DNA of 64,000 bases, taken from contig OZ271838.1 in NCBI GenBank assembly GCA_965601785.1, positions 3,698,916-3,762,915 on the forward strand, written 5' to 3'. Of this stretch, positions 44,978 to 63,368 are shown one piece after another. This DNA is from Woeseiaceae bacterium. GTDB lineage: Bacteria > Pseudomonadota > Gammaproteobacteria > Steroidobacterales > Woeseiaceae. Each line of letters opens with the position of its first letter. The stretch's first letter is position 1. The notes under the pieces are model-generated. The model worked only from the letters and a program-made list of their open reading frames with translations, was not told where the DNA came from and did not search any database. Position numbers and translations under genes: made by a program.

Positions 44978-45017
44978 TACAGGTCCCTTGCGTGGTTGTC
45001 CGACGCTGCGGCGAGCC

Positions 45018-45458: not shown

Positions 45459-45460
45459 GG

Positions 45461-46851: not shown

Positions 46852-46852
46852 G

Positions 46853-48474: not shown

Positions 48475-48478
48475 GGCC

Positions 48479-49537
48479 TCAGGCAGACTCGGCGATAGCG
48501 CTCTCAGCCTCACGGCTGGCAGAAAGCACCGCCATGGCGGCCGCGTGACCCTGCGCGATCGAATCGTCGATCGTCTCGGGACCCGTAGCGGAACCCGCCA
48601 CGTAGACGCCCGGGCGCGAGGTCTCACCCATGGCGCCGTAGCGATTCGCGGCGTCGATGTAGCCGTGCTGTTCGAGATCGATACCAAAGGTGCCGGCGAT
48701 GTCCCGGTTGTCGACATTCGGGTCCATGCCAATCGCGTGCACGACCATGTCGAACGGAATCGTGATCGGTCGCTTCACGAGTGTATCTTCGCCCTTGACG
48801 ATGAGCTTCTCGCCGTCGGACGTGACTTCCGCGATGCGCGCCTTGATGTACTTGACCTTGAACTCTTCCTGGCTGCGCCAGTAGTACTTGGTCTCGTATA
48901 GCCCGAAGGTACGGATGTCCATGTAGTAGATATAGACATGGCAGTCCGGCAGCTCCTCGCGAATCTCCATGGCCATGTTCGCAGACACGGTGCAGCAGAT
49001 CTTCGAGCACCACTCCCGGCCGATCTGCCGGTCGCGCGAACCGACGCAGAGCAGGATCGCGACACGCTCGGGCTTGCGGCCGTCAGAGGGACAGCGCACG
49101 CCCTGTCCCGAGGAGATCATCTGTTCGACCTGGGTCGTCGTAACGACGTCAGGGAAGGTGCCGAAGCCCCACTCCGGCTTGTTGACCGAGTCGAAGTGTG
49201 TGAAACCGCTGCAGAGTATCGCCGCTTCCGCCTCGAGGCTCTCACCGTTGGACAGCTTTGCCTCGAAGTCGCCCGGTGAGCCGTCGAACTGCGTGACCGT
49301 GGCGCCGGTGACAACCTTGACGTGGGGATTTCCTTCGACGCGGTCCACCATGCCGCCAATGGCATCCTTCGCCCATTCGCCCGAGGGTACGAGCTTGGCG
49401 TAGCCCGACAGGATCGGCGCGCCGCCGAGGCGGTCTTCCTTCTCGACGATGACGCAGTCCTTGCCGACAGTGGCGAGGCTGTGTGCGGCGGCGAGTCCGG
49501 CGGGTCCGCCACCGAGGATCAGTACCGGCTTGCTCAT
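48479..49537 (-). CDS. shdrA: sHdrA, short HdrA-like FAD/[4Fe-4S] flavoprotein
   Basis: 352 aa with ILGGGPAGLAAA dinucleotide-binding motif and Cys cluster CVGSRD...CSKICC. ATGA overlap with shdrB1. Confidence 0.85.
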   Translation of the reverse strand: MSKPVLILGGGPAGLAAAHSLATVGKDCVIVEKEDRLGGAPILSGYAKLVPSGEWAKDAIGGMVDRVEGNPHVKVVTGATVTQFDGSPGDFEAKLSNGESLEAEAAILCSGFTHFDSVNKPEWGFGTFPDVVTTTQVEQMISSGQGVRCPSDGRKPERVAILLCVGSRDRQIGREWCSKICCTVSANMAMEIREELPDCHVYIYYMDIRTFGLYETKYYWRSQEEFKVKYIKARIAEVTSDGEKLIVKGEDTLVKRPITIPFDMVVHAIGMDPNVDNRDIAGTFGIDLEQHGYIDAANRYGAMGETSRPGVYVAGSATGPETIDDSIAQGHAAAMAVLSASREAESAIAESA

Positions 49538-50892
49538 TTCGGGCCCTCCACGGCACGGAAGCCCGGACCGGAGGTAATCATCTTGCGCGGATCGTAGAGC
49601 GTCTCGCCCCGGCCGGCCTCGACTTCCTTGAGATAGTCTTCGAACTCCGCCTTCTTCGCCTGCCAGTCGATACCGAGTTTCTCCATTAGCGACTCGGTCG
49701 ACGAGGCGTGCCAGTGTGACTGCACGATCTTATAGGGATGCGCGCCGCACACGAGCGCTGCGAACTGGACGTCGGCGAGCACGGGCAGGTCGACCGGCTT
49801 GCCGGCCGCGGCGCCGATCCACTGGTTCTTGTCGAGCGTCGTGATGCAGCCCGTGTCGTGGCCAACCATCATGTCGGCACGCGCCTCTTCCTGGGCGACG
49901 CGAATCTTGCGATCGATCGCGAAAGACCGCGTGAATTCGCGCTCGGAGATGATGTGCCGGAACCCGAAGCCGCAGCAGTCGTACCAGGTCGAGTAGTCGA
50001 TCACCTGGGTACCCAGCGCCTCCATCAAGCCGGTCGTCACCGCGACGCGGTTGCCCTCGAGGATGTCGTCGTCGTAAATCGCATCCTCGGGCACCATCTT
50101 GTAGACATGGCAGGCCGGGTGCACGGTCGCACGAATGTGGCTGCAGTCGATGACCTGGCGCTTCTTGATCTCGTGGCGCATGACGTGCAGCCACTCGGAG
50201 TAGTGCACGACCTCCTCGGGAATGAGCAGCTTGCCGTCGACGAGCCGGCCGAGCTTGCCGAGGATGGTCTTCATACGCTCGCGCAGCTTGGCGGACTGGA
50301 TCAGGTAGCCGCGCACTTCCTTGTAATTGCCGAAGGAGGTACCGCAGTGCACAAGCGGGTAGTAATACGATTCCGGCAGACCCTGCGCCTTGGCGGCGAC
50401 GTAGGCCTGGTGGAAGTTACGCAGGAACACGGCCGCGAGGCTCTCGATGTTGCCGATACCCGAGCCGTGGTAGTTCCAGGCCGTGCAGGAGGTCTGGTCG
50501 GTCTCGTCGAGGTACTCGATGCCCATCTCGTTCATGAGCCAGAGTAGGGACGCCGGGTAGCCCGGGATGTTGCCGCACTGTCCGCAGGACTTGTGATGCC
50601 AGAGGCGCGTGGTCGGGATCTTCTTGTCCCAGCCGTACAGCGTCTTGACCATGACGGGTTCGTGCTCGTCGCTGACGCGATGCACGACGATCTCGCCGTC
50701 CTTCTCCAGCTCCCACATGGCATCGCGAACATCTTCGACGCGATCCTTGTTAGTCAGCATGGACCGCTTGTTGATGATCTGGTCGACCCAGACCGTCGCG
50801 ACGTGGGCATCTTCCTTGCTGAGGTTAGCGTCCTGCCATTCGGCGCCATGGCCGGTAAAGCGCTCGCCGTCGTTGCCGTTACCGTGGTTCAT
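49534..50892 (-). CDS. shdrB1: sHdrB1, heterodisulfide reductase subunit B-like
   Basis: 452 aa with Cys motifs HKSCGQCGN and YDCCGFGFRH (CCG domain). Confidence 0.85.
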   Translation of the reverse strand: MNHGNGNDGERFTGHGAEWQDANLSKEDAHVATVWVDQIINKRSMLTNKDRVEDVRDAMWELEKDGEIVVHRVSDEHEPVMVKTLYGWDKKIPTTRLWHHKSCGQCGNIPGYPASLLWLMNEMGIEYLDETDQTSCTAWNYHGSGIGNIESLAAVFLRNFHQAYVAAKAQGLPESYYYPLVHCGTSFGNYKEVRGYLIQSAKLRERMKTILGKLGRLVDGKLLIPEEVVHYSEWLHVMRHEIKKRQVIDCSHIRATVHPACHVYKMVPEDAIYDDDILEGNRVAVTTGLMEALGTQVIDYSTWYDCCGFGFRHIISEREFTRSFAIDRKIRVAQEEARADMMVGHDTGCITTLDKNQWIGAAAGKPVDLPVLADVQFAALVCGAHPYKIVQSHWHASSTESLMEKLGIDWQAKKAEFEDYLKEVEAGRGETLYDPRKMITSGPGFRAVEGPK

Positions 50893-50948
50893 CGTTGTAC
50901 TCCTGGTGTCACCGGGCAGGCGCGCCGAGACGCCACCTGCGCAAGTTC

Positions 50949-51692
50949 TCAGTCGTCCTGCTCGTCGAGGAAGTCCTCATAGTCGTCGCGCTTCTCGTCC
51001 ATGATGTCGCTGATGACGTCGAACAGGTTTTCGTCAATGGTCTCAAGGCTGTCGAGCACACCGGTCTCTTCCCAGATCGTGTAGAGCTCGACGGATGTCT
51101 TGAGGTTGACCTCCCACGCCGTCTTGGTCGTGTGCAGCGTGGGCATCGGGATAGCCTTGCGCAGCGTCGTAAGCGGCGCATCGACTTTCGAGATATTCGG
51201 CCCCCAGTCCGCGAAACCCTCGGGGTTAATCATGTCGGGCGACAGCTGGTTGCCCGTGGAAATCAGCTTGAGCATGACGCGGCTGAAGGGCCTCAGCACG
51301 CTTTTCGCGGATTCCATGCCGTGCTTGATCGCGGTCTCGCGCATAAGCATGACGAGCCCGCCCGGCGAGTTGCCGAAGGGACAGCGCGCAGCGCAGGTGT
51401 AGCACTGCGCACAGGACCAGATCTTCTCCTGCATCGCATCGTGGATGCCTTCGAGGTTCTCGGTCCACAGCAGCTGCACGATCTCGCGCGGGCTGAAGTC
51501 GTAGTAATGCGCCGCGGGGCAGGTTGCCGTACAGATACCGCAGTTCAGGCAGCCGTTGAGTTCGTGGTCAAAACGCAGGTCGGCCTGGATGTCCTGGAAG
51601 ATCTCTTCGAGTTGTTCACGATCGACCGGCGGCGAATCCGACACCGGATCGCCCATAACGTGTTGAACTCGGCTGGTGGCGGAATGCGACAT
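50949..51692 (-). CDS. shdrC1: sHdrC1, heterodisulfide reductase subunit C-like ferredoxin
   Basis: Two [4Fe-4S] motifs: CLNCGICTATCP and CAQCYTCAARCP. Confidence 0.85.
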   Translation of the reverse strand: MSHSATSRVQHVMGDPVSDSPPVDREQLEEIFQDIQADLRFDHELNGCLNCGICTATCPAAHYYDFSPREIVQLLWTENLEGIHDAMQEKIWSCAQCYTCAARCPFGNSPGGLVMLMRETAIKHGMESAKSVLRPFSRVMLKLISTGNQLSPDMINPEGFADWGPNISKVDAPLTTLRKAIPMPTLHTTKTAWEVNLKTSVELYTIWEETGVLDSLETIDENLFDVISDIMDEKRDDYEDFLDEQDD

Positions 51693-51714
51693 GGTCTTGG
51701 TCCTCTCTGTGCGC

Positions 51715-52092
51715 CTAGTAGGACAGGACCCTGCAGTCGCCTTCCATGACCTCTTCGATCAGGTGGGCGCCACCGACTATGCCTTCGCATTCGGGGATCA
51801 GGTCGTCCTTGGTCATATCGAACAGGTCGAGGTTCGGCGAGCAGCAGAAGAACTTGACGCCGGCCTCGTGGGCATCCTGGATGAAGCTGTAGACGCTCTT
51901 CGGCGACCCTTCCTTGACGAACAGGGTCTCGGCGACGCCTTTCTTCATCAGGCGGCCGGACGTTGCGGTGCAGATGACGTCGACGTCGTAGTCCATGGCG
52001 GCGGCAACCGTCGCCTGGAAAATCGGCGCTCCGAGCTCCTCGCCGTTACGCGGGTCGGTATTCGCCATGACGATAATGAGTTTCTCAGCCAT
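51715..52092 (-). CDS. dsrE3: DsrE3-family sulfurtransferase (DsrE/DsrF fold)
   Basis: 125 aa with a DsrE-like fold and conserved Cys in FFCCSPN. GGAGAGAGGG SD. First gene of the shdr transcription unit. Confidence 0.75.
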   Translation of the reverse strand: MAEKLIIVMANTDPRNGEELGAPIFQATVAAAMDYDVDVICTATSGRLMKKGVAETLFVKEGSPKSVYSFIQDAHEAGVKFFCCSPNLDLFDMTKDDLIPECEGIVGGAHLIEEVMEGDCRVLSY

Positions 52093-52112
52093 CCCTCTCT
52101 CCCCCTGGCTGG

Positions 52113-52134
52113 TGAACGGCGGACAAGCCGTTCA
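52113..52134. promoter_or_regulatory. Inverted repeat TGAACGGC-N6-GCCGTTCA between the GATase1-like gene and dsrE3 (operator, or weak terminator/attenuator)
   Basis: 8-bp perfect arms read directly from the sequence, flanked by the AT-rich tract TTAATTAGCATATACTAAATTA (52139-52160). Confidence 0.3.
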
Positions 52135-52161
52135 ACAGTTAATTAGCATATACTAAATTAC

Positions 52162-52893
52162 TCAAGTATCCAAACCGCCGACACCCGCATCGAGCGCCTT
52201 CGGCGTTGACATAAGCGCCGTGCGCTGCACGAGCCCGGTCATGATCGGCACCAGCTCATCCTCGAGCCGGGGCTGCAAACCGCGGAGTACCTCGAGCTTC
52301 GCCGGCGCATCGTCGGGCACCTCTTCGAACTCCATGACGAGGTCCTCGATCATCCCCAGTTTGATACCGGGATTGCCGGCGAATCCATACGCATTTTCGC
52401 CAACTTGAAAGACTGCGGGCTCCCCGGCCGCGTCGACCGCCAGCACAGTCGCGTCGGAGGGCGGCACCGCTCGATCGCGCATGTAGGTCACCTGGCAGAA
52501 GGTCTCGGGCAGGAAACCGTTGAGCGCGTCGTCCCGCGTGCGCGTCGCCTCGCCAATATCGAACGCGAGCGGCGTCGGCGCAGAGCCGCCACCGGCTGCT
52601 ATCGCAAGTATCTGGGCGCCGAGGCCGAAGCCGACGACGGGGGTCCCTTCCTCGAGCCGCTGCCGGGTAAGCTCGACCTCGCGATCGAGCGTCGGCAGGT
52701 CGCGACCGCCCGCCGAGCCCCATGGACCGCCTCCAAGCAGGAACAGCGCGTCGGCTGGCAGCTCCGCCTCCGGCAGGCTGCCGGCCGCGAACGGCCGGAA
52801 ATACTGGAATCGAATCCGGCGACCCTCGAGATGATCTTCCATTAGCCCCAGGTACTCGCCGGACGTATGCTGGATTACCGCCACGACGTTCAT
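52162..52893 (-). CDS. Class-I glutamine-amidotransferase-fold protein lacking the Cys-His-Glu triad
   Basis: 243 aa from the ATG at 52893. GATase1-like layout, but the nucleophile elbow reads GFGLGAQ (canonical G-x-C-x-G-H-Q) and the HPE position reads GNPG. Confidence 0.6.
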   Translation of the reverse strand: MNVVAVIQHTSGEYLGLMEDHLEGRRIRFQYFRPFAAGSLPEAELPADALFLLGGGPWGSAGGRDLPTLDREVELTRQRLEEGTPVVGFGLGAQILAIAAGGGSAPTPLAFDIGEATRTRDDALNGFLPETFCQVTYMRDRAVPPSDATVLAVDAAGEPAVFQVGENAYGFAGNPGIKLGMIEDLVMEFEEVPDDAPAKLEVLRGLQPRLEDELVPIMTGLVQRTALMSTPKALDAGVGGLDT

Positions 52894-52945
52894 TGCGGCG
52901 CCCTCGCGACGGGCGAGCTTGAACGCGTCGTCGGCCTTGCTGCAC

Positions 52946-54022
52946 TCAGCCACGACGGTCAGCAGCCAGCGCGCTGTCGATCGCGGCAATGAAGTCGGAC
53001 GGCAGTACGCTCAGGGTATCGGTCGGGTGCGCATCGAAGAACGCCTCAATGGCGGCGGCGTATTCGTCGAGTCCGGCGCCGGCGAGATGCGCCTCGAGAT
53101 CGAGCACGAAGCGCGGTGGCGTTACGAAGAAGTCGCCGGTAAACAGCACGCGCTGCAGCAGCCTGCGCGGCGGGCTCTCGAGTTTCAGGTAAGCATCGAT
53201 CGTGCCGCCGGCACTCGTATGGCTACCGGCGAGGAAGCCGCTGTCATCCCTGACGTTATCGATCTCGAACAGGAACTCGTCCTTGCCGATCTCCTCGTCG
53301 AAGCAGTGGCTCGCGAGGCCTTCTTCCTGCTCAGTGATCTCGCCCGGACTCGCCTCGATGCCGAGCCTCTCGGTCAGGCCCTTAACGACCGCCGCCTTGA
53401 CCGCGTCGAGATCCGGCATATCGTCGCCCAGGAGGTCGCGGAGACTCACGACACGATCCGCCGCCGAACCGAGCTCGCGCTTCGCGAGCTTGCTGTCGGG
53501 TACGCGCAGGGCTTTGACCATCCGGTCGGCGTCGAAATCGACGAGCACCGTGCCCTGGTAGATCAGCACGTCGCCGTCGTAGAAGCCGCCCGTGCCGCTG
53601 ATCTTGCGGCCGTCCACCTCGATGTCGTTGCGCGGTCGAAAGCGGGCGTCGATACCCAGCGTGGACAGCCCGGCGGCGACCGCGTTACAGATCTCTCTTG
53701 CCACGTCGGGCAGCTTGGCGACCCCCAGCGCGGAGCGGTGGAAAACGAGTTCCCAGCCGAGCTGGCTCTCGTCGAGATAAATCGCGCCGCCGCCCGTGAT
53801 GCGGCGGACGAGACCAATGCCATTCGCCTCGCAGTACAGCCTGTTGACCTCGAGGCTCAGGTCCTGGTGGCGACCCACGAGGACCGTCGGCGGAAAGCGC
53901 AGGAAGCGAATCGTGTCGGGCACGAGGTTCTGCTGGCGCGCCTCGATCAGCGCGGCATCGAACGCGATATTCGCGCGGCCCTCGCGGACGCCGGTATCGA
54001 TGATCCGGAACGGGTCACCCAT
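52946..54022 (-). CDS. slpl(AB): Lipoate-protein ligase, sLpl(AB) type
   Basis: 358 aa with LplA motifs RRITGGGAIYLD and VDGRKISGTG. A C-terminal accessory domain is fused. It lies in the cluster with lbpA. Confidence 0.85.
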   Translation of the reverse strand: MGDPFRIIDTGVREGRANIAFDAALIEARQQNLVPDTIRFLRFPPTVLVGRHQDLSLEVNRLYCEANGIGLVRRITGGGAIYLDESQLGWELVFHRSALGVAKLPDVAREICNAVAAGLSTLGIDARFRPRNDIEVDGRKISGTGGFYDGDVLIYQGTVLVDFDADRMVKALRVPDSKLAKRELGSAADRVVSLRDLLGDDMPDLDAVKAAVVKGLTERLGIEASPGEITEQEEGLASHCFDEEIGKDEFLFEIDNVRDDSGFLAGSHTSAGGTIDAYLKLESPPRRLLQRVLFTGDFFVTPPRFVLDLEAHLAGAGLDEYAAAIEAFFDAHPTDTLSVLPSDFIAAIDSALAADRRG

Positions 54023-54034
54023 CAGCTGGCTGCC

Positions 54035-55285
54035 CTATTCGACGGTAACCGGGATGTCGAGCTGCCGGCGAATCTTCTTCAGGTCCTTCTTGCCCGGCTG
54101 GAATGGATAGCTCGCGATATCGCTTGGCGGTGAGTCGCCGTAGGGGCGATCACAGGCCGAGATGTCCTCCCGGACCTTGCCGGGGCAGCCTGACGTGCGG
54201 AACGCCACGCCCTCGGCGATGACGGCATCGAGTTCCGCCGCCGGTATGCCGAAGTCGGTCACCCTGCCCTGTTCATCGAAGCGCATATGGTCGACGCGCA
54301 CGTCGCGGTAATCGATGAGGTAGCGGGCGAGCTGCACGCGCCGCCACTGGTCGCGCGGCGTCGCAGGCAGATGGTCCATCAGGGAACCGTCTTCAGGGAA
54401 GAAACAGAACATATGGCTGTGGCCGCCAAGGTCGACGAGGCGCTGTACGAGCGTCAGCACTTCGTGTTCGGTTTCGCCCATGCCGACGATGATGTGGGCG
54501 CCAAACTTCTCGGGCCCGAAAATATCCGCTGCATCCTCGAGGATTTCCCAGTACTTCGACCACTTGTGTGGCGACTGCACACCCTTGCCGCGCGTGCGGT
54601 CGAATACCTCAGGAGTCGCGGCATCGAGGGCAACCGTGAAGATATCGGCACCGAGATCACGCGTCTTCTGGACGTCCTCGCGAGTCATCGTCGTCGGATT
54701 GGAGAGGATCGATACCGGTATCTCGTGCGGTTCGATGCGATCGGTCCACTGCTTGAGCACCGTGAAGGTGTCGTCTTCCGATCGCGGGTGCGTGATCATC
54801 GAGATGCACATGCGATGGAAAGGACTCGACGCCGGATCCTTTGCCACGATGTCGATGATCTGGGACATCGGCACGGCGGGCCAGTCGACGCGAATAAAGT
54901 TCCGGTCCGCGTAATCGCGATCCGCCTCGCGGTGGCGGGCGAGGCCACAGTAGGCGCAGTTGGCGCGACAGCCCTCAGGATAGGTCAGGAGCAGATTCAG
55001 GCAACGCGTGCACTCGCAGCCGTACATCTTGCCGCCCATGATGCCGAGCGTAATCGCGGCGGCCGTCGACAGCTGTACGTACTCGGGCGACTTCATGTGC
55101 GGCGCCAGTATGTTGTTGTTGGGCAGGTAGACACCTTCGGGCGGAATGTCGTTTGCCTTGACGTGCTTGCCGTTCCGGCGCTCGGCGGGTGTACGCTCGG
55201 GGCTTCGCGGCTGCATGGCGCCGAACGCATTGAAATCGACGCTGCTCTCTTCGGCGGGGCTCTTTTTCTGCTCGATACAACTCAT
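54035..55285 (-). CDS. Radical SAM protein, LipS1/LipS2-type lipoyl synthase component
   Basis: 416 aa with a CX3CX2C motif (CRANCAYC) preceded by an extra CECTRC Cys cluster. I cannot assign it to S1 or S2 by eye. Confidence 0.7.
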   Translation of the reverse strand: MSCIEQKKSPAEESSVDFNAFGAMQPRSPERTPAERRNGKHVKANDIPPEGVYLPNNNILAPHMKSPEYVQLSTAAAITLGIMGGKMYGCECTRCLNLLLTYPEGCRANCAYCGLARHREADRDYADRNFIRVDWPAVPMSQIIDIVAKDPASSPFHRMCISMITHPRSEDDTFTVLKQWTDRIEPHEIPVSILSNPTTMTREDVQKTRDLGADIFTVALDAATPEVFDRTRGKGVQSPHKWSKYWEILEDAADIFGPEKFGAHIIVGMGETEHEVLTLVQRLVDLGGHSHMFCFFPEDGSLMDHLPATPRDQWRRVQLARYLIDYRDVRVDHMRFDEQGRVTDFGIPAAELDAVIAEGVAFRTSGCPGKVREDISACDRPYGDSPPSDIASYPFQPGKKDLKKIRRQLDIPVTVE

Positions 55286-55302
55286 GATCGATTACTCACA
55301 GG

Positions 55303-56340
55303 TCAGGCCGCGCAGGAACGCGCGATCGTTGGAGAGGCGTCGCTGCCCAGCTTGATCGAGCAGCAGGAGTGGGCCTGTACGAAAGGCCGGCCGATTTCGT
55401 GTGCGACCGAGACAGCGCCATCGGCCGGGAACGCGATACCGTCGAGCCCGGCCATAATCGCGTAGGCATCGGTCACGCGCTTGTGCATACCCGGCGGCCT
55501 GGCGCAGCCGAGCAGTACCTGCTTGTCGGCAAGCCGCTGCCGCGCCTCGCCGAAGATACGGCCCACATCGCCCGTCGACGGCGTAACGAAGGTGCCGGGC
55601 TTCGCGTAGAACGGCATGATGACGACGAGCACCAGCGCGGTCACCGGGTAGCGGCTGACGATATCGAGTGCGCGGGACTCGCCGAGGATGCGCCCGTAGT
55701 GCAGGCCGACGACGATGTGCGGCGTCACTTCCATGCCCGTGCTGCACAGTGCCGCGAGCGTCGACTCGAAGTCTTCTACCGGCCGATCGAGCTTGTAGAC
55801 CTCGCGGATCGTGTCGTCGTGACCGATCACATCCATCATGACCGTATCGACGCCTGCCGACTCCATGGCCTTCGCGCGTTGCTCGTCAAGGAGTGCACTG
55901 TGGATGGCGACGCTGAGATCCGGAAAATCCCGCTTCAGACCCTCGACGACCGGCAGGAAACGACCGTAGTTGATCTCGTTCTTGCGATTCGAGCCGCCGG
56001 ACAGGAGGAAGCCCTTTAGGCCGTCGCTCTCGATCAGCGCCCGGACCTTTGCATCAAGCATCTCCGGGTTTGTCGCCGGGATCATTGGCTCGAGGATCTT
56101 CTTCTGGCAATGATCGCAGTTGAGTCCGCACTCGCCCGCCGTAATCGAGAACGCGGGAAAGCTGTTCTTGCCGCAACCCTTGAGTTCACTCGAGGCGTAC
56201 TCCTTGAAGGTTGGGGTAGAGAAACGGACAGGGCGTTCGCGGACCCGATCGGCGCGCGACTCGAACTCGGCCACGAGGCCCTCGTCGAACTCCGCATCCT
56301 CGAGATCCTCGATATGTTTAAGCGCGTCAAGCCAGGTCAT
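55303..56340 (-). CDS. Radical SAM protein, LipS1/LipS2-type lipoyl synthase component
   Basis: 345 aa with a CX3CX2C motif (CGLNCDHC) and C-terminal Cys (HSCCS). 17 nt from the next radical SAM gene. Confidence 0.7.
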   Translation of the reverse strand: MTWLDALKHIEDLEDAEFDEGLVAEFESRADRVRERPVRFSTPTFKEYASSELKGCGKNSFPAFSITAGECGLNCDHCQKKILEPMIPATNPEMLDAKVRALIESDGLKGFLLSGGSNRKNEINYGRFLPVVEGLKRDFPDLSVAIHSALLDEQRAKAMESAGVDTVMMDVIGHDDTIREVYKLDRPVEDFESTLAALCSTGMEVTPHIVVGLHYGRILGESRALDIVSRYPVTALVLVVIMPFYAKPGTFVTPSTGDVGRIFGEARQRLADKQVLLGCARPPGMHKRVTDAYAIMAGLDGIAFPADGAVSVAHEIGRPFVQAHSCCSIKLGSDASPTIARSCAA

Positions 56341-56375
56341 TGTGTGACTCCCCCCGAGTCGTCCGGCGAATCGGC

Positions 56376-57548
56376 CTACGGCCGGTTCGAATCAACCAGT
56401 GTTTGTATCGTGTCCCTGACGGGTCCTGTATACGGTGTATCCGCAATGCGCCTGAGCCACGCCGGATCGCGCTCGTCTTCGTCGACGAGTTCGCAGTCCA
56501 TCGCGGCGAGGATTTCCACAGCATCGGCCGGCAGCGAATCGGGAATGGGACAATGCGCAAGCAACGCCCAGAGACCGGCCCAGTATCGCGTCAGCGTCCA
56601 CGGGTTATAGCCGCCGCCGCCGAGCACGACCGTCGGCAGGCCAAGATTTACCAGTCGGTCGACCGTTGACCATAGCGCGACGTTCGTGAGCTGCATCGCC
56701 GACAAGGGATCGCCGGCCAGGCAGTCGGCCCCACAGCAGATCACGAGCGCATCGGCGTGACGCTGGTCGATGACCGGCATCACGACCCTGTCGATGAGGA
56801 AATGCAGCTCGCTGTCGATCAGGCCGCGCGGCACGGGCAGGTTGTATACCCCGCGACCAGGGTCGGACGCGGTGCCTGTATGCGGCCAGCGGTCTGCCTC
56901 GTGAATCGAGATCGTGGTCACGGCATCGTCATCGACAAAGGCCGCCTCGACGCCGTCCCCGTGGTGCGCGTCGAGATCGACGTAGGCCACGCGCCGCGCA
57001 CCGTCGTCGGCCAGCGTACGAATCGCGAACACCGGGTCGTTGAAATAACAGAAGCCACAGGCACGATCCGGCCGGCCATGGTGGGTACCGCCCGACGGAT
57101 GGAATGCCACGCCGCCATCAAGCGCAAGGCGCGCCGCTTCTATGGAGCCTTGCACCGTCGCAGCGGCCCGCGCGAATACGCCTGGAAACAGTGGATTCTC
57201 CAGGGTTCCGAAGTGGTAGCGCTCGCGCTCGGCCCGCGCGACCGACCCTACGGTGTCTGCGTATTGCAGCGCCTCGATGTAGTCAAGATCATGAAACCGG
57301 GAAAGCGTCTCGCTCGGGGCGGGGCCGACCGCGCATGTGTCTGCATCACCGAGCCAGCCCATGGCCCGGGCGAGGTCGCGGACGGCGCTGTGCCGGATGA
57401 TCGCAAGCGGGTGGTTTCCCGGGAAAGCGGGTTTGCCGAACAGCTCGCTCGTAATGAAAGCGGCGTGTCGCGCCTGGGCAGCGACAAGTCCGTGGTCACG
57501 GGCGTGCTGCTGGTTTTCGAGGGGCCGCTGCATCGGGACCGGGAACAC
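56376..57548 (-). CDS. Histone-deacetylase/AcuC-fold Zn-dependent deacylase
   Basis: HDAC signatures are intact: SGGTHHG (His-His), GFCYFND, DLDAHHGDG (metal ligands), GGGGYN (catalytic Tyr). Start uncertain: GTG at 57548 or ATG at 57533. Confidence 0.8.
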   Translation of the reverse strand: MFPVPMQRPLENQQHARDHGLVAAQARHAAFITSELFGKPAFPGNHPLAIIRHSAVRDLARAMGWLGDADTCAVGPAPSETLSRFHDLDYIEALQYADTVGSVARAERERYHFGTLENPLFPGVFARAAATVQGSIEAARLALDGGVAFHPSGGTHHGRPDRACGFCYFNDPVFAIRTLADDGARRVAYVDLDAHHGDGVEAAFVDDDAVTTISIHEADRWPHTGTASDPGRGVYNLPVPRGLIDSELHFLIDRVVMPVIDQRHADALVICCGADCLAGDPLSAMQLTNVALWSTVDRLVNLGLPTVVLGGGGYNPWTLTRYWAGLWALLAHCPIPDSLPADAVEILAAMDCELVDEDERDPAWLRRIADTPYTGPVRDTIQTLVDSNRP

Positions 57549-57630
57549 CCTGGACTGGTTGAAATGCCGTAGTCAGAGTATTCCATACCGCTAATAAAGA
57601 CAATTATGATATTCTAATATTCAGAGAGAT

Positions 57631-57645
57631 CGTTCATTCTGAACG
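57631..57645. promoter_or_regulatory. Inverted repeat CGTTCA-TTC-TGAACG immediately upstream of the dsrE2-like RBS
   Basis: Perfect 6-bp arms, 15 nt before the ATG at 57660. It shares the GTTCA/TGAAC half-site with the repeat at 52113-52134. Confidence 0.3.
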
Positions 57646-57659
57646 GGAGGGGAACCACA

Positions 57660-58211
57660 ATGGCCAGTGAAGCATCGGCCGTGACGTCCGACATGCAGAC
57701 GTCCGCGGACCAGGCGCCCGTAGCGGCGCCCGAAACCAAGAGCATGTCCATCATTGTTACCAAAGGCTCGCTCGACTGGGCGTATCCGCCGTTTATTCTT
57801 GGCACCACTGCCGCAGCAATGGGCTTGCCGGTGACAATGTTCTTCACCTTTTACGGGCTGCCGCTGCTCCTGAAAAAGCTCGACCTTAAGCTTACGGCTG
57901 CCGGCAACCCCGCAATGAAGATGCCTATGATGGGCGCGCACGTCGGCCTGCCGAATCTCCTGACGGCGGTCCCGGGCGTCGACGCCGCCTGCTCGACGAT
58001 GATGAAGAACCTCATGAACAAGAAAGGCGTTGCCTCGATCGAGGACCTCAGGGAACTCGCCGTGGACGCAGAAGTTCGCATGATCGCGTGCCAGATGACG
58101 ATGGACCTCTTCGAGTACTCCCTCGACGACATGATCGAGGGAATCGAACTCGGCGGAGCGGCCACCTACATCGAGTGCGCCACGCAAGCCGATATCAACC
58201 TGTTCATCTAG
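57660..58211 (+). CDS. DsrE2/COG2210-like DsrE-fold sulfur-relay protein
   Basis: 183 aa with a GGGAGGGG SD, a hydrophobic segment (PPFILGTTAAAMGLPVTMFFTFYGL) and conserved Cys in IACQMTMDLF. Adjacent to tusA. Confidence 0.65.
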   Translation: MASEASAVTSDMQTSADQAPVAAPETKSMSIIVTKGSLDWAYPPFILGTTAAAMGLPVTMFFTFYGLPLLLKKLDLKLTAAGNPAMKMPMMGAHVGLPNLLTAVPGVDAACSTMMKNLMNKKGVASIEDLRELAVDAEVRMIACQMTMDLFEYSLDDMIEGIELGGAATYIECATQADINLFI

Positions 58212-58228
58212 CCGGGGGAGGCAAGACC

Positions 58229-58459
58229 ATGGCAGACCATACTCTCGACGCGAAAGGGCTCAATTGCCCGCTACCGATCCTCAAGGCCCGCAAGGCGCTC
58301 AAGGAGGTGCCCGCCGGCGGTACGCTGGAAATCCTCGCGACCGACCCGGGCGCGGTAGCCGACTTCGAGGCGTTTTGCCGGCAGACGGGCAACGAACTCG
58401 TCGAGCATTCGGAGGACGACTCGGTGTACCGCTTCCTGATCAAGCACACGGCAGCATAG
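58229..58459 (+). CDS. tusA: TusA-family sulfur carrier protein
   Basis: 76 aa with the DAKGLNCPLPILK (CPxP) active-site motif. Internal ATG of track ORF 58088..58459. Confidence 0.9.
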   Translation: MADHTLDAKGLNCPLPILKARKALKEVPAGGTLEILATDPGAVADFEAFCRQTGNELVEHSEDDSVYRFLIKHTAA

Positions 58460-58474
58460 TCGCTGCGCGAACGA

Positions 58475-58501
58475 GGGCGTCGCTGAAGTCGGCGCCCTTT
58501 T
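58475..58501 (+). terminator. Rho-independent terminator candidate after tusA
   Basis: GGGCGTCG-CTGAAGT-CGGCGCCC (8-bp stem with one G-U pair) followed by TTTT, 16 nt after the stop codon. Confidence 0.55.
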
Positions 58502-58544
58502 CGTATGCGCGGCGCGCATCGATCGCATAGACCAGGAGACCCTA

Positions 58545-59600
58545 ATGAACGTCTTACCCGGGTTGCTGCTGGCGCTGGTGATAGCGCTTGCCGGCCAGTT
58601 CCTGTCCGATTTCATCGGCATTACGCTGATGGGCCTGCCGAAGAGCCCAATTAGCGCCATCATGATGGCGATCCTGCTGGGCATCGTCGTCAACAACGTG
58701 ATCCGGCTGCCGGAATCGTTCAAGCCCGGGATTCGTTTCGGGCTGGTGCGGGTACTGCGGCTCGGCATCGTGCTGCTGGGTATTCGCCTGTCGATTTTCC
58801 AGGCCGGCGAGATCGGCCTGAAGGCGTTGCCTGTGATCATCGGCGCCGTCACCGCGGCACTCGTTATCGTGAGCTTCCTGAGCCGCAAGCTGGGCTTGAG
58901 CCGCAAGCTCGGCACCCTGCTCGCGGTGGGCACGAGCATTTGCGGGGCAACGGCAATCGTCGCCACGGCGCCGACGATTGGCGCCAAGGACGACGAGGTC
59001 AGCTACGCCGTAGCCTGCGTCACGCTGTTCGGCATTCTCGCCATGCTGATCTACCCGTTCGCCGCACACGCGATCTTCGCGGGCGACGCATTCCCTGCAG
59101 GGCTCTTCCTCGGCACCTCGGTGCACGAGACGGCGCAGGTCGCGGGTGCCGGACTCGTTTACCAGCAGTACTACGGCGACGCACTCGCCCTGGATGCAGC
59201 AACTGTCACGAAACTGGTACGCAACCTCGGCATGCTCGCCATTATCCCGCTAATGGCAATCCTGTATCACCGTAACTCCGATGACGGTGAGCAGGCACCC
59301 GCCTGGTACAAGATGATCCCGCTGTTCGTCGTAGGTTTTGCGGTGATGAGCATACTGCGTACCGTAGGCGATGCGGGTGACCCGGCTTTCGGCATAATCC
59401 CGGTCGAACGCTGGAACTGGCTCGTTGCCCACACCAAGGAACTGGCCGAGCTGCTGCTTGCGATTGCCATGGCCGCGGTCGGTCTCGGCACGAGCGTCAA
59501 GGGCCTGATCTCGATCGGCTACAAGCCGCTGGCCATGGGCCTCGTCGCCGCGCTGCTCGTCGGCGGCGTTAGCCTGGTCCTGATCAGCGCACTCTATTAG
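58545..59600 (+). CDS. yeiH: YeiH/UPF0324 family membrane protein (putative anion exporter)
   Basis: 351 aa, about 10 hydrophobic helices, resembling the YeiH family. AGGAGA SD. Confidence 0.75.
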   Translation: MNVLPGLLLALVIALAGQFLSDFIGITLMGLPKSPISAIMMAILLGIVVNNVIRLPESFKPGIRFGLVRVLRLGIVLLGIRLSIFQAGEIGLKALPVIIGAVTAALVIVSFLSRKLGLSRKLGTLLAVGTSICGATAIVATAPTIGAKDDEVSYAVACVTLFGILAMLIYPFAAHAIFAGDAFPAGLFLGTSVHETAQVAGAGLVYQQYYGDALALDAATVTKLVRNLGMLAIIPLMAILYHRNSDDGEQAPAWYKMIPLFVVGFAVMSILRTVGDAGDPAFGIIPVERWNWLVAHTKELAELLLAIAMAAVGLGTSVKGLISIGYKPLAMGLVAALLVGGVSLVLISALY

Positions 59601-59609
59601 GAGCACACG

Positions 59610-60923
59610 ATGGCGAAGAAGTCCCGCGGTCTGCACGAGCTCTATTCGAACGGCGCTGACGCCGACGGGACGCTCTGGGGTCGCCAGGTCGACCCGCTGA
59701 CGCGACGCGGTTTCCTGAAGGGCAGTGGACTCGCCGCCATGTCGGCTGCGCTCGGCGCCAGTATTCCCTTCGCAGAGTACATGCCAGGCGGCCTGATTCC
59801 TGCCGCTTTGGCACAGAGCGACGCGGCCTTCGAGATCCCGGGCAAGGACGGCCTGGTTGTCCTTAATGACCGGCCGATCAACGCCGAGACCCCGGCACAC
59901 CTCCTCGACGATCGCGTGACGCCGGCATCGCGCCTGTTTGTCCGCAACAACGGCATTCCGCCCACAGCGGAGGCCATCGATCCCGATAGCTGGACGCTGG
60001 AGATCGGCGGGGAATCGGCGACAGAGACGGTGAGCCTGACGCTCCCCGAGCTCAAGGCGAAGTTCAAACACTACACCTACCAGCTGTTGATCGAGTGCGG
60101 CGGCAACGGCCGCAGCGAATTCGTGCCGTCGGCGTCGGGCAACCAGTGGACGACCGGCGCGGTTGGCTGCCCGGAGTGGACCGGCGTCCGCCTGGCCGAC
60201 GTGCTCGACTACGTCGGCGTGCGCGACGATGCCGTATATGTCGCGTACTACGGCGCGGACCGGCATGCGAGCGGAGATTCGCGCAAGGCATCGATCTCTC
60301 GCGGCGTGCCGATCGCGAAAGCGCGCGAAGACGAGTCGCTGATCGCGTGGGCGCTCAACGGCGAAGACATGCCACTACAGAACGGCCACCCGTTGCGACT
60401 CGTGCTGAGCGGCTGGCCCGCCTCGGTGTCGGGCAAGTGGCTCAATCGACTCCTGATTCGCGATCGCGTGCACGACGGCGCGAAAATGACAGGCTCGTCG
60501 TACCGCGTGCCCTGCAGCCCGGTCGCGCCGGGCACGACGGTGCCCGACGAAGACATGTGCATCATCGAGGCGATGCCCGTGAAATCACTCGTGACCTTCC
60601 CGAAGTCGGGTATCGAGCACTCGATCGACAAGCCGCTTGCGGTACGGGGGCACGCCTGGGTGGGCGACGACCGCGTCCGCCGTGTCGACGTCTCGATCGA
60701 CTTCGGTGCGAGCTGGCAAAAGGCAAGGCTCGAGAGGCCGGCGAACCGCCTTGCCTGGCAGCACTGGCAGACAGCTATCGAGTTCCCCGGCAAGGGCTAT
60801 TACGAAGTCTGGGCGCGTGCCACGGACAAGAGCGGTCGCTCGCAGCCCATGGTGTTACCGGGCTGGAATCCCAAGGGTTACCTGAACAACGCCTGCCATC
60901 GCATCGCCGTCCAGGTCGTCTGA
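59610..60923 (+). CDS. sorA: Periplasmic sulfite dehydrogenase, molybdopterin subunit (SorA / sulfite-oxidase family)
   Basis: Tat leader LTRRGFLKGSGLAAMSAALG, a Mo-ligand Cys region LIECGGNGRSEF, and a C-terminal dimerisation-domain-like region. Confidence 0.8.
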   Translation: MAKKSRGLHELYSNGADADGTLWGRQVDPLTRRGFLKGSGLAAMSAALGASIPFAEYMPGGLIPAALAQSDAAFEIPGKDGLVVLNDRPINAETPAHLLDDRVTPASRLFVRNNGIPPTAEAIDPDSWTLEIGGESATETVSLTLPELKAKFKHYTYQLLIECGGNGRSEFVPSASGNQWTTGAVGCPEWTGVRLADVLDYVGVRDDAVYVAYYGADRHASGDSRKASISRGVPIAKAREDESLIAWALNGEDMPLQNGHPLRLVLSGWPASVSGKWLNRLLIRDRVHDGAKMTGSSYRVPCSPVAPGTTVPDEDMCIIEAMPVKSLVTFPKSGIEHSIDKPLAVRGHAWVGDDRVRRVDVSIDFGASWQKARLERPANRLAWQHWQTAIEFPGKGYYEVWARATDKSGRSQPMVLPGWNPKGYLNNACHRIAVQVV

Positions 60924-61300
60924 TGCGAAGGATCGTAGCTGTCGTCGCGACCGCCCTGCTCGCCTGCGGCGTCGCACCCTTTGCGGCGGCCGAATCCGAA
61001 GTCGACGCCTACTCCGGGCTCATCAAAGAGGGCGACTGGGAGCTCGTGCGCAACAACTGCATTGCCTGCCACTCGGGCAAGCTGATCACCCAGCAGCGCG
61101 GCTCCCGGGAGCAATGGCTGAAGATGATCCGCTGGATGCAGGCGACGCAAAACCTCTGGGCGTTCGAGCCGGCGGTCGAGGCGAAGATTCTCGATTACCT
61201 CGCCGCGACGTATCCCTCGGCCGAAGACCGTCGTCGGGCGCCGATCCCCAGGGCATTGATGCCGCCGAACCCCTACAAGGCAACATCAACCGAGCCCTGA
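60923..61300 (+). CDS. sorB: Monoheme cytochrome c, SorB-like partner of SorA
   Basis: 125 aa with a signal peptide and a single CIACH motif. TGATG overlap with the sorA stop. It is the in-frame internal start of track ORF 60095..61300. Confidence 0.7.
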   Translation: MRRIVAVVATALLACGVAPFAAAESEVDAYSGLIKEGDWELVRNNCIACHSGKLITQQRGSREQWLKMIRWMQATQNLWAFEPAVEAKILDYLAATYPSAEDRRRAPIPRALMPPNPYKATSTEP

Positions 61301-61390
61301 GCGCCCCGCGTTGGTAGAAACCGCTATAGCGGCCGACCGCCCCTTCCATTAGATTTTTCTAATAAGAAGAACGCCTTTGGAGGGGGGCGA

Positions 61391-61879
61391 ATGGCCGCTT
61401 TTGCTGTGCTCGGCGTCGGCAACAACCTGCTGACCGATGACGGCGTCGGGATTCACGTCCTTAATGCCGTCGGCCGTACCTCCCGGTATCCGGATACCGC
61501 GCTGATCGACGCCGGCACGGTCGGTCTTGCGCTGGCCAGCCACCTCGCAGATCTCGATGGTCTCGTTGCCGTCGACGCCATGCGCCTCGGCAAGGAGCCG
61601 GGCTGCGTATCGGTGTTCGAGGGTACCGACATGGACGCACAGCTTCGCCGGCATCACGGCAGCGTACACGAGCTCGGTCTTTCCGATCTCGTCGACGCGT
61701 TAAGGCTCTCGGATGCCCTGCCCGACCGCCGCGCTATCGTGGGGATCGAGCCGGCAAGCCTCGACTGGGGCACTGAACCCACCGAGGCCGTCGCGAGGGC
61801 GATCCCGAAAGCCGTCGACTCGATCGAGCGCCTGTTGAACGCCTGGCGTTCCACACAGCAGGCCGAGGACGCGGCCTAG
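61391..61879 (+). CDS. [NiFe] hydrogenase maturation endopeptidase (HyaD/HoxM family)
   Basis: 162 aa with N-terminal VLGVGNNLLTDDGVGIHV, typical of hydrogenase maturation proteases. Confidence 0.8.
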   Translation: MAAFAVLGVGNNLLTDDGVGIHVLNAVGRTSRYPDTALIDAGTVGLALASHLADLDGLVAVDAMRLGKEPGCVSVFEGTDMDAQLRRHHGSVHELGLSDLVDALRLSDALPDRRAIVGIEPASLDWGTEPTEAVARAIPKAVDSIERLLNAWRSTQQAEDAA

Positions 61880-61881
61880 CA

Positions 61882-62316
61882 ATGGGCAGCCCGCTCGCCG
61901 CCGCTTCCGCTGTCCCCCGGGGCAACATCGTCCCGATCCTCAATGAGATCGCGCACGCACTTGATCGCCTGATCAGTGACGGTGAGAGCACGGTCATCGA
62001 CCTTGCTCGACTGCCGTTCTCACCCGGCGAACTCGAATCGCTCGAGACCACGCTTGGCGAAGGCGAACTCGTCGCGAAACTTGATGCGCTCGGCGAGAGC
62101 AGGATTAGGGAGACCGTCTTTCCCGGCGTCTGGTGGATCGAGCATCGCAACGCCGGCGACGACGTCGTTGGTCGATACATCGAAATCACGCGGTCTCCCG
62201 ACATCCTCCGGTCGCAGACGCCGGACATCGAGGCCGGTCAGAGGGTGCTGGCCGAACGGCTCACGACCATGCAGGCCGCGGACGACAACGTGACAGCCGA
62301 AGAGGAGCGCGAATGA
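61882..62316 (+). CDS. Hydrogenase expression/formation accessory protein (HupH C-terminal-domain-like)
   Basis: 144 aa between the protease and the small subunit. The resemblance to HupH-type proteins is from memory only. Confidence 0.45.
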   Translation: MGSPLAAASAVPRGNIVPILNEIAHALDRLISDGESTVIDLARLPFSPGELESLETTLGEGELVAKLDALGESRIRETVFPGVWWIEHRNAGDDVVGRYIEITRSPDILRSQTPDIEAGQRVLAERLTTMQAADDNVTAEEERE

Positions 62317-63368
62317 ACGAACGAGCAACGCTCGGCGATATGCTGCAGCAACGCGGCGTTTCCCGCCGCGGCTTCATGAAGTACTGCGCGGCCACGGCGT
62401 CTCTGCTTGCGCTGCCACCATCAATGATCCCTCGCATTGCCGCAGCGCTGGAAACCGCTCGGCGCCCGTCGGTCATCTGGCTGTCCTTCCAGGAATGCAC
62501 GGGCTGCACAGAGTCGCTGACGCGCTCGTCGTCGCCTACCGTCGAGAGCCTGATCTTCGACAGCATCTCGCTCGACTATCACCATACGCTGCAGGCGGCA
62601 TCCGGCGACGCCGCGGAGGCGGCGCGACATGCAGCGATGAAGGAGAACGAGGGCCAATACCTCGTCCTCGTCGACGGCTCGATACCGCTTGGTAACCCTG
62701 GCTACTCGACGATTGCCGGCATCAGCAACGTCGACATGCTGCACGAGACAATCGAAGGCGCCGCCGCCGTCGTCGCAATCGGCAGCTGCGCCGCCTTCGG
62801 CGGCATCCCGGGTGCAAACCCGAACCCGACCGGCGCCGTCTCGGTACAGGACATCGTCAAGGACAAGCCTATCGTCAATGTCCCGGGCTGTCCGCCGATC
62901 CCGATGGTCATTACCGCCGTGCTCGCGCAGTTCCTGACCTTTGGCCAGCTGCCCGAACTCGACATCTACGGCCGCCCGGTTGCGTTCTTCGGACAGACGA
63001 TCCACGACCGCTGCTACCGCAGGCCGTTCTACGAGCAGGGTCGTTTCGCCGAGAGTTTCGACGACGAGGGTGCGCGCAAGGGCTGGTGCCTCTTCAAGCT
63101 CGGCTGCAAGGGCCCGATCGCCTACAACGCCTGCGCGACGCTGAAGTGGAACTCGGGCACCAGCTTCCCGATCGAGGCGGGTCATCCGTGCCTCGGCTGC
63201 TCCGAACCCAACTTCTGGGACAAAGGCGGCTTCTACCGGCCGGTCTCCGCCGGCGAGATCGGCAACGGCACAGCGTTAGGCGGCGCGGCCGTGGCCGGCG
63301 TAGCACTCGGCGCTGCCGCTGCCGCCATGGCGCGGAATCGCCAGAAGAAAATCGCGAAGGAGGGTTAA
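62313..63368 (+). CDS. hynS: [NiFe] hydrogenase small subunit with Tat signal and C-terminal anchor
   Basis: SRRGFMKYC twin-arginine motif, FQECTGCTESL proximal-cluster motif, a later PCLGCSEP, and a C-terminal hydrophobic tail. ATG at 62313. Confidence 0.9.
   Translation: MNERATLGDMLQQRGVSRRGFMKYCAATASLLALPPSMIPRIAAALETARRPSVIWLSFQECTGCTESLTRSSSPTVESLIFDSISLDYHHTLQAASGDAAEAARHAAMKENEGQYLVLVDGSIPLGNPGYSTIAGISNVDMLHETIEGAAAVVAIGSCAAFGGIPGANPNPTGAVSVQDIVKDKPIVNVPGCPPIPMVITAVLAQFLTFGQLPELDIYGRPVAFFGQTIHDRCYRRPFYEQGRFAESFDDEGARKGWCLFKLGCKGPIAYNACATLKWNSGTSFPIEAGHPCLGCSEPNFWDKGGFYRPVSAGEIGNGTALGGAAVAGVALGAAAAAMARNRQKKIAKEG

Follow-up and report, generated by a model that had tools for sequence, protein, structure and literature searches.

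Gene organization around the deacylase

A gene for a predicted zinc-dependent deacylase of the histone deacetylase (HDAC) fold was found in a 64,000-nucleotide stretch of a Woeseiaceae bacterium genome (contig OZ271838.1, positions 3,698,916 to 3,762,915; hereafter, the window). The deacylase gene was the first of a co-directional string on the minus strand, where it was followed by lipS1-lipS2-slpl(AB)-lipX-dsrE3-shdr-lbpA-shdrR. The original prediction, made from the DNA letters, had put a deacylase at the head of this lip-shdr string, and the gene order bore out its first position. The neighbors were likewise those that had been named: LipS1 and LipS2 (NF053742 and NF053743), sLpl(AB), LbpA (GCV_H), and a regulator of the ArsR/BigR type. 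LbpA was the sole N6-acyl-lysine (lipoyl) carrier encoded within the cluster, and lipT was missing from it.

The open reading frame (ORF) predicted at 56376-57548 was present in the window, and its translation contained SGGTHHG, GFCYFND, DLDAHHGDG, and GGGGYN. Its description had to be corrected in that the frame lies on the minus strand and that its start is probably the ATG at 57533, giving 385 amino acids, rather than the GTG at 57548. With 385 residues as well, the publicly available call for this gene (P0001) matches the ATG at 57533. Residues 1-20 were not conserved among orthologues and had predicted local distance difference test (pLDDT) scores below 50 in an AlphaFold2 (AF2) model. 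The stop codon of the deacylase gene (56376-56378) and the ATG of lipS1 (56338-56340), both on the minus strand, agree with the claim that 35 nt separate the deacylase from the first radical S-adenosylmethionine (SAM) gene.

Catalytic residues, fold, and family of the deacylase

The deacylase matched Pfam PF00850 with an E value of 3.5e-61 and 207.6 bits (cutoff, 27.9) over residues 46-328, covering positions 1-296 of the 298 in the profile. The Pfam scan matched no other family, and the NCBIfam scan assigned none. The best sequence match in the PDB was HDLP of Aquifex aeolicus (1c3r; E = 4.6e-62), in which residues 31-378 of 385 were aligned, and it was followed by HDAC8, HDAC2, HDAC1, and RPD3 at about 1e-41. 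The top 60 PDB matches consisted of HDLP, HDAC8, HDAC2, HDAC1, RPD3, and a few HDAC6 entries at similar E values, which placed the protein with the class I-like/HDLP enzymes; no polyamine deacetylase was among these 60. In the AF2 model, built with 46 orthologues, the pLDDT was 88 and the predicted template modeling (TM) score was 0.89. A Foldseek search with this model gave HDLP 1c3r as the best match, with TM scores of 0.89/0.92 and a root mean square deviation of 2.1 Å, and the top matches, HDLP and HDAC8/2, had a probability of 1.00, indicating the arginase/deacetylase alpha/beta fold. Identity as an acetylpolyamine amidohydrolase (APAH; cluster 4 of Graf et al.) was considered and rejected, since no APAH was among the best PDB sequence or fold matches.

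The catalytic residues were assigned by mapping onto HDLP and HDAC8. They consisted of the histidine dyad His151 and His152, the charge-relay residues Asp186 and Asp193, the zinc ligands Asp188, His190, and Asp270, and the catalytic Tyr309, which correspond to His131, His132, Asp166, Asp173, Asp168, His170, Asp258, and Tyr297 of HDLP. That all hallmark residues are present and the enzyme is catalytically intact had been predicted and still stands, apart from the location of the metal ligands: DLDAHHGDG supplies only two of the three (Asp188 and His190), and the third, Asp270, lies in the GAD motif of CCGADCLAGD. Gly160, Phe161, Trp216, and Leu277 line the tunnel, and Arg47, Thr150, Cys162, and the GGGG of residues 305-308 belong to the foot pocket. 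These catalytic, tunnel, and foot-pocket residues were invariant in the 46 database orthologues and in 78 orthologues translated from loci. Glu112 aligned with Asp101 of HDAC8, the residue that binds the peptide backbone of the substrate. The position was Glu in 77 of the 78 linked orthologues and in HDLP, and Gly in the closest unlinked relative, an alphaproteobacterial protein (locus L030). The conserved Glu points to a peptide-bound lysine as the substrate.

The foot-pocket motifs SGGTHH, with Thr replacing the Leu of XGGLHH, and GGGGY were both invariant and are those of cluster 2 of Graf et al. (2024; PMC11532494), to which the AcuC-type enzymes belong (Bacillus subtilis AcuC, 2c). In that study, XGGLHH and (G/A)GGY, in place of RPPxHH and EGGY, were connected with an extension of the foot pocket that makes room for longer acyl chains, and an octanoyl-lysine peptide was the best substrate of B. 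subtilis AcuC among the peptides tested. Judged from its sequence, the deacylase is a catalytically intact, class I-like enzyme of the HDLP/AcuC type. A medium-chain acyl-lysine is a plausible substrate because of the SGGTHH and GGGGY motifs and the activity of AcuC on octanoyl-lysine. As for HDLP and HDAC8, the chemistry can be predicted with little doubt: metal-activated water would attack an amide with the help of the His dyad and the Tyr.

Conservation of the linkage between the deacylase and lipS1

The linkage was analyzed in two independent samples. The first was anchored on the deacylase: one genome per species was scanned, and 35 loci were found. In all 32 loci from Woeseiaceae (the majority) or unclassified gammaproteobacterial metagenome-assembled genomes (MAGs), lipS1 was directly downstream of the deacylase, with 11-67 nt between the matches, and the deacylases were 54-63% identical to the window protein. 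Where the contig was long enough, the whole lipS2-slpl(AB)-lipX-dsrE3-shdr string followed downstream and the divergent dsrE2-tusA pair lay upstream. The second sample consisted of 80 metagenome loci whose LipS1 was 70-85% identical, only those with at least 70% LipS1 identity being kept; since it was anchored on LipS1, it was not selected for the deacylase. Sixty-nine of the 80 loci had at least 400 nt upstream of lipS1 and could be assessed, and a same-strand deacylase was upstream of lipS1 in 66 of the 69, within 118 nt in 64. Thus, the deacylase was retained in 98 of 101 assessable loci of the two samples together. The linkage to lipS1 was therefore strongly conserved. As to the acetoin or polyamine contexts named in the original prediction, the orthologues were checked and did not lie in them; only distant relatives at 31-45% identity did.

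The pairing of the deacylase with lipS1 survived rearrangement upstream, dsrE2 (L110) or tusA (L111) being co-directional ahead of the deacylase, and it held with or without lipT. A lipT-sized insert was present between lipS1 and lipS2 in 11 loci and was a LipT-like flavoprotein gene in the one locus checked (L083). In L103, a gene for an MMPL transporter (L103:7486-9954) lay between the deacylase and lipS1. The ratio of nonsynonymous to synonymous substitution rates (dN/dS) in close orthologue pairs was 0.09-0.14 for the deacylase and 0.05-0.08 for lipS1, and the deacylase gene is under purifying selection. The deacylase was the least conserved product of the cluster (50-65% identity vs. 70-95% for the neighbors) and evolves faster. 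The persistence of the pairing amid rearrangement, a dN/dS of about 0.1, and a base composition matching that of the neighbors indicate that the deacylase is, as far as genome comparison goes, a long-standing, selected member of the cluster. A foreign origin of the gene was rejected, because its GC content and its GC content at third codon positions agreed with those of the neighboring genes.

Several loci had unusual structures. In L106 (7219-9957), an AurF-like di-iron oxygenase domain preceded the deacylase in the same frame, and the two shared a 912-amino-acid ORF without an intervening stop codon, which is either a fusion or an assembly artefact; a luciferase-like monooxygenase lay ahead of this ORF. 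In L027, L031, L032, and L052, the deacylase match was split over two or three frames. Three of these four loci were from long-read MAGs (MFD series), a type that has frameshifts in other genes (e.g., in L009 and L024), and sequencing errors are more likely than pseudogenes. A GDSL lipase/acylhydrolase gene followed lipX in L083 (15284-16291), and genes for an alpha/beta hydrolase and a MAPEG protein were on the opposite strand in L100 (8357-9907).

Outside the clade, the nearest relative of the deacylase was encoded in an alphaproteobacterial MAG, was 45% identical, and was flanked by genes for an ABC transporter and a DUF192 protein and by paa genes. Linkage in Aquificae was considered and rejected, as the HDLP orthologues of Aquifex pyrophilus and Hydrogenobacter thermophilus lay among housekeeping genes, though these organisms are sHdr/LbpA users. 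Long LipS1 proteins (P0128, P0231, P0174, P0191, P0132, P0252, and P0139) carried a LipS2-like second radical-SAM domain, a LipT-like flavoprotein in either order, or an LplA catalytic domain, and one LipS1 among them had a C-terminal antitoxin-like domain (Unstab_antitox).

Operon anatomy and regulation

The coordinates of the deacylase gene, its neighbors, and the intergenic elements are collected in Table 1. When the minus strand was scanned for terminators, the 35 nt separating the deacylase from lipS1 showed no hairpin of this type. From this operon anatomy, that is, the short gap, a Shine-Dalgarno-like run, and the lack of a terminator, co-transcription of the deacylase with lipS1 is likely. 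Scans with promoter and terminator consensus sequences gave nothing above shuffled expectation, and an Rfam scan of 44000-62000 gave no match. The divergent intergenic region between dsrE2 and the deacylase was 112-127 nt long across loci. In 53 loci it contained an element of about 44 nt, more than 90% conserved at most positions, with variable flanks. This element holds two ATTA-N8-GAAT units 23 nt apart, which resemble the ATTC-N8-GAAT operator of SqrR/BigR-type repressors. The element may serve as the operator for the ArsR/BigR-type regulator at the cluster tail and may also include divergent promoter elements. In Hyphomicrobium, binding of sHdrR to intergenic stretches of the shdr region has been reported (PMC12423496).

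Sequencing runs covering the junction were also inspected. Four runs containing the window's own locus (X1-X4) had flat depth and contigs of 60-320 kb, which indicated that they are DNA. In RNA-labelled runs (X9-X12), contigs spanned the deacylase/lipS1 junction of the related locus L040. These runs also had contigs of 52-122 kb and even intergenic coverage, so DNA is probably present in them, and we did not count them as proof of co-transcription. Clearer metatranscriptomes (X7 and X8) contained traces only.

Table 1. Genes and intergenic elements in and around the lip-shdr cluster (window coordinates)
Feature	Position	Strand	Basis and remarks
4HBT (hotdog) thioesterase	42578-43048	+	Opposite strand, near cluster tail
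FadL/TodX-family outer-membrane transporter	43094-44575	-	Directly behind the regulator gene at cluster tail
shdrR-like ArsR/BigR-family regulator	44627-44977	-	Pfam HTH_5; NCBIfam BigR E = 9.6e-23, below cutoff
lbpA, GcvH-like lipoate-binding protein	45018-45458	-	Pfam GCV_H E = 1.3e-30
148-aa ORF between shdrB2 and lbpA	45461-45907	-	No Pfam/NCBIfam match; copies 58-68% identical in same place in related loci
shdrC1-B1-A-hyp-C2-B2 block	45904-51692	-	Reading of ORF translations; syntenic blocks 70-95% identical in related loci
HdrB2	45904-46851	-	ORF translation and synteny
HdrC2	46853-47617	-	ORF translation and synteny
Hyp (shdr block)	47617-48474	-	ORF translation and synteny
HdrA	48479-49537	-	ORF translation and synteny
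HdrB1	49534-50892	-	ORF translation and synteny
HdrC1	50949-51692	-	ORF translation and synteny
DsrE-family sulfurtransferase (DsrE3-like)	51715-52092	-	Pfam DrsE_2/DsrE
lipX-like class I glutamine amidotransferase-like protein	52162-52893	-	NCBIfam amidotransferase models E = 9e-17, below cutoff; position as lipX (Tanabe 2023)
slpl(AB), lipoate:protein ligase	52946-54022	-	Pfam LplA-B_cat E = 3.5e-46; LplB part matched
lipS2, radical SAM lipoyl synthase component	54035-55285	-	NF053743 E = 2.9e-56, 191.1 bits, below curated cutoff of 270
lipS1, radical SAM lipoyl synthase component	55303-56340	-	NF053742 E = 9e-57, 192.7 bits, below curated cutoff of 230; Pfam Radical_SAM
Spacer between deacylase and lipS1, 35 nt	56341-56375	-	Reads GCCGATTCGCCGGACGACTCGGGGGGAGTCACACA; Shine-Dalgarno-like run GGGGGGAG 7 nt before lipS1 ATG
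Predicted HDLP/AcuC-type Zn-dependent deacylase, 385 aa	56376-57533	-	Pfam PF00850, HDLP match; alternative GTG start at 57548
Conserved intergenic element, about 44 nt	57575-57618		Between dsrE2 and deacylase; consensus CatATTAGAnTATCAgAATTGTCTTTATTAGtgnaATanAATATTcTc
dsrE2, divergent	57660-58211	+	NCBIfam DsrE2 E = 5.2e-65, above cutoff
tusA, divergent	58229-58459	+	Translation and synteny
Sulfite-oxidase-type molybdoenzyme	59610-60923	+	First gene of the region 59610-63368
Region 59610-63368	59610-63368	+	Molybdoenzyme, then small CxxCH-motif ORF; downstream, hydrogenase maturation protease, HupH, [NiFe] hydrogenase small subunit

On the divergent side, dsrE2-tusA was followed by a gene for a YeiH-family membrane protein and then by the sulfite-oxidase-type molybdoenzyme gene. 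Since sulfite-oxidase-type and [NiFe] hydrogenase genes lie beside the sulfur genes, the region combines genes for sulfur and hydrogen oxidation. At the other end of the cluster, the FadL/TodX transporter and the 4HBT thioesterase could be related to the supply of free octanoate, with a possible LipY-like role.

Possible function of the deacylase

We tentatively prefer to view the protein as an accessory deacylase of N6-acyl-lysine, with the editing, unblocking, or recycling of LbpA as its function. Four points favor this reading: LbpA carries the only N6-acyl-lysine species that the neighboring genes produce, the genes that the deacylase adjoins are specifically those for the lipoyl synthase, the Glu at the position of HDAC8 Asp101 is kept, and the AcuC class accepts C8 chains. 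In such a mechanism, an active, monomer-type HDLP/AcuC-like zinc amidohydrolase would have been recruited to the sLpl(AB)/LipS1/LipS2 module in Woeseiaceae and close relatives. It would bind the exposed lysine hairpin of LbpA and hydrolyze an N6-acyl group that is misplaced or no longer useful. Such a group could be an acetyl of non-enzymatic origin that blocks the target lysine, an acyl chain of the wrong length attached by the ligase, or an octanoyl or lipoyl species that is damaged or stalled. Apo-LbpA would be regenerated for a new round of octanoylation and sulfur insertion, a role that may be compared, by analogy, to that of editing thioesterases for the carrier proteins of polyketide synthases (PKS) and nonribosomal peptide synthetases (NRPS). 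The transcript would probably start at the divergent dsrE2/deacylase promoter region, with the deacylase as its first gene, extend through lipS1 into the genes downstream, and be controlled by a repressor of the sHdrR type. We infer acyl-LbpA as the substrate, the benefit of editing, unblocking, or recycling, and the co-transcription from the evidence above. There is a fair, though less than even, chance that the protein represents the first zinc-dependent lipoamidase or de-octanoylase with an HDAC fold. It would then be encoded within a lipoate-assembly operon and be devoted to the proofreading or recycling of LbpA.

A number of observations weigh against a function on LbpA. Hyphomicrobium, Thioalkalivibrio, and other bacteria run the pathway without such an enzyme, and the deacylase was missing from 3 of the 69 loci inside the clade (L072, L093, and L107). 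In six distant lipS1 lineages (LipS1 identity, 39-51%; looked up singly, several on short contigs), no PF00850 gene was upstream of lipS1. LipS1 fusion proteins among the long LipS1 representatives join LipS2, LipT, or sLpl, never a deacylase. The pocket residues Thr150, Gly153, Arg154, Arg215, and Trp216 are common to the unlinked alphaproteobacterial relative L030; clade-specific active-site changes were rejected, since the distinctive residues other than Glu112 also occur in that protein, and this indicates that the active site has not been retooled in the clade. An amidase co-expressed with the ligase that it would oppose needs specificity. LbpA as the substrate is deduced from gene context and the activity of relatives, and the case for co-transcription with lipS1 is one of gene anatomy.

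The positions upstream of lipS1 in the six distant lineages were occupied by lbpA, lipS2, slpl, or an unknown gene, and in one of them (L124) no PF00850 gene was present anywhere in the 21-kb context. The linkage with lipS1, lipS2, and slpl(AB) was thus conserved where LipS1 was at least 70% identical and was not found in the six lineages at 39-51%. Because these six lineages and 3 of the 69 in-clade loci lack the deacylase, it is, on present genome comparisons, a clade-restricted accessory of Woeseiaceae and close relatives and not a core component of the pathway. One of the three in-clade loci without it, L072 (2874-8156), contained a reduced cluster with divergent dsrE2 and lipS1-lipS2-slpl(AB)-dsrE3-lbpA-regulator, lacking also lipX and all shdr genes.

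A salvage amidase that feeds the ligase is an unlikely but reasonable alternative. The enzyme would release free octanoate or lipoate, needed by sLpl(AB) as its substrate, by hydrolyzing either a small N-acyl amide or the octanoyl- or lipoyl-lysine of proteins other than LbpA; GcvH or E2 octanoylated by LipB, as well as turnover peptides, could be the sources. The linkage data fit salvage as well as they fit a function on LbpA, the pathway starts from free octanoic acid (Tanabe 2023, PMC10332631), the AcuC class hydrolyzes octanoyl-lysine in vitro, and sister clusters carry other hydrolases and transporters, namely the GDSL acylhydrolase of L083, the alpha/beta hydrolase of L100, and the MMPL transporter of L103. 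However, the FadL/TodX transporter at the cluster end and the nearby 4HBT thioesterase are other routes to free fatty acids, and stripping essential lipoyl proteins would be costly.

That the enzyme is a regulatory deacetylase like AcuC, acting on some protein other than LbpA, has a similarly low probability. Its closest characterized relatives, B. subtilis AcuC and the class I HDACs, deacetylate proteins and thereby activate enzymes, and the gene lies behind a presumably regulated divergent promoter region; sLpl(AB), LipS1/S2, sHdr subunits, or sulfur carriers could be reactivated by deacetylation when the sulfur-oxidation regulon is induced. That the active site is indistinguishable from that of the unlinked relative fits this explanation. 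It is opposed by the lack of an AcuA/GNAT acetyltransferase or AcuB in the cluster, unlike in the true acuABC of L034, and by an adjacency that is specific to lipS1 even where the other neighbors differ. In addition, sLpl(AB) is not known to belong to the ANL family, which counts against a regulatory deacetylase.

It is very improbable that the protein hydrolyzes amides of small molecules (e.g., of an acetylated metabolite of the amine or thiol type) or that the gene is a passenger, preserved by synteny inertia and irrelevant to both sulfur oxidation and the assembly of lipoate: the HDAC fold does include polyamine and xenobiotic amidases (PMC11532494), the association is limited to one clade, and the deacylase is the least conserved member of the cluster, but the best matches were class I/HDLP enzymes and not polyamine deacetylases, Glu is conserved at the peptide-backbone-binding position, and the gene was kept under a dN/dS of about 0.1 across lineages whose other neighbors had been reshuffled.

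Should acyl-LbpA be the target, an editing or recycling step would be added to the recently described sLpl(AB)/LipS1/LipS2 pathway, the lipoamidases would gain a new enzyme class, and the question of how LbpA lipoylation stays correct or supplied with substrate would become directly testable with a few recombinant proteins. With an HDAC-fold lipoamidase, the Woeseiaceae, which are globally abundant in sediments, would assemble the cofactor on LbpA in a reversible, edited process and not in a one-way modification. Woeseiaceae are core members of marine sediment communities, and with such carriers the step would be relevant to sulfur cycling in the environment. If the substrate is different, the gene would still be a clean case in which one lineage has recruited a deacylase into a sulfur-responsive regulon.

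Comparison with known systems

To our knowledge, very few physiological substrates of bacterial class I-like deacylases such as AcuC and HDLP have been established, and we know of none for HDLP, the protein that founded the structural understanding of HDACs. The window deacylase is a member of this group with an unusually specific genomic clue: in about a hundred loci, its gene stands strictly beside those for the lipoyl synthase of the sHdr/LbpA sulfur-oxidation pathway. HDLP (PDB 1C3P/1C3R/1C3S) was its best sequence match, in an alignment that spans almost the entire protein with its C-terminal helices, and its best fold match, with identical catalytic residues and a Glu at the position of HDAC8 Asp101. 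However, the two proteins are 33% identical, Thr150 replaces Met130 of HDLP in the foot pocket, and the HDLP orthologues of A. pyrophilus and H. thermophilus do not adjoin lip or shdr genes. HDAC8 has the same fold and catalytic mechanism (E of about 1e-41; TM of about 0.8), whereas its identity is about 29% and its Trp141 corresponds to Thr150. Long-chain fatty-acyl-lysine activity is known for HDAC8 and HDAC11, so the HDAC fold can remove C8-C14 acyl groups, but both are eukaryotic enzymes with chromatin and cytosolic targets.

B. subtilis AcuC is also a class I-like bacterial deacylase with the XGGxHH and GGGY foot-pocket motifs and is documented to be promiscuous for acyl chains. The window deacylase was 31-35% identical to bacillus AcuCs, too little to indicate orthology. 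Its neighbors were dsrE2 and lipS1, without acuA or acuB, in contrast to the acuA (GNAT)-acuB (CBS/ACT)-acuC order of the bacillus locus L034, and AcsA, the known target of AcuC, had no counterpart in the window cluster. Because of this identity, the lack of an NCBIfam family, and the missing acuA/acuB partners, the window deacylase is, by sequence and context, not AcuC in the strict sense.

Known lipoamidases are Lpa of Enterococcus faecalis, of the amidase-signature family with a Ser-Ser-Lys triad, and the NAD-dependent sirtuins SIRT4 and CobB; none of these is known to be part of a lipoate-assembly operon. They would share their chemistry, the removal of lipoyl or octanoyl groups from lysine N6, with the window deacylase if the latter were a lipoamidase or de-octanoylase. 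Their folds and mechanisms are unrelated, and the deacylase, which matched PF00850 only, shows no sequence relationship to them. Type II (editing) thioesterases of PKS/NRPS clusters are hydrolases encoded with a carrier-protein loading system that free mis-acylated carriers. Since they act on thioesters and not amides and have the alpha/beta-hydrolase fold, this comparison is an analogy only.

The papers that defined the sLpl(AB)-LipS1/LipS2 pathway (Cao 2018, PMC6067878; Tanabe 2023, PMC10332631) do not list a deacylase as a component, and neither mentions a deacetylase, AcuC, or a lipoamidase. The accessory proteins named in the latter are LipT, LipX, and LipY only. A literature search found no paper pairing LbpA, sHdr, or LipS1/2 with a deacetylase, HDAC, or AcuC, in agreement with the original prediction that the described pathway has no such component. 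Within the searchable literature, the association of a deacylase with lipoate assembly is undescribed, and what is new is a known enzyme family in a tightly conserved association of this kind. Like the described pathway, the window contains slpl(AB), lipS1, lipS2, lipX, lbpA, and shdr in one string; its cluster differs in being without lipT and in having the deacylase as its first gene.

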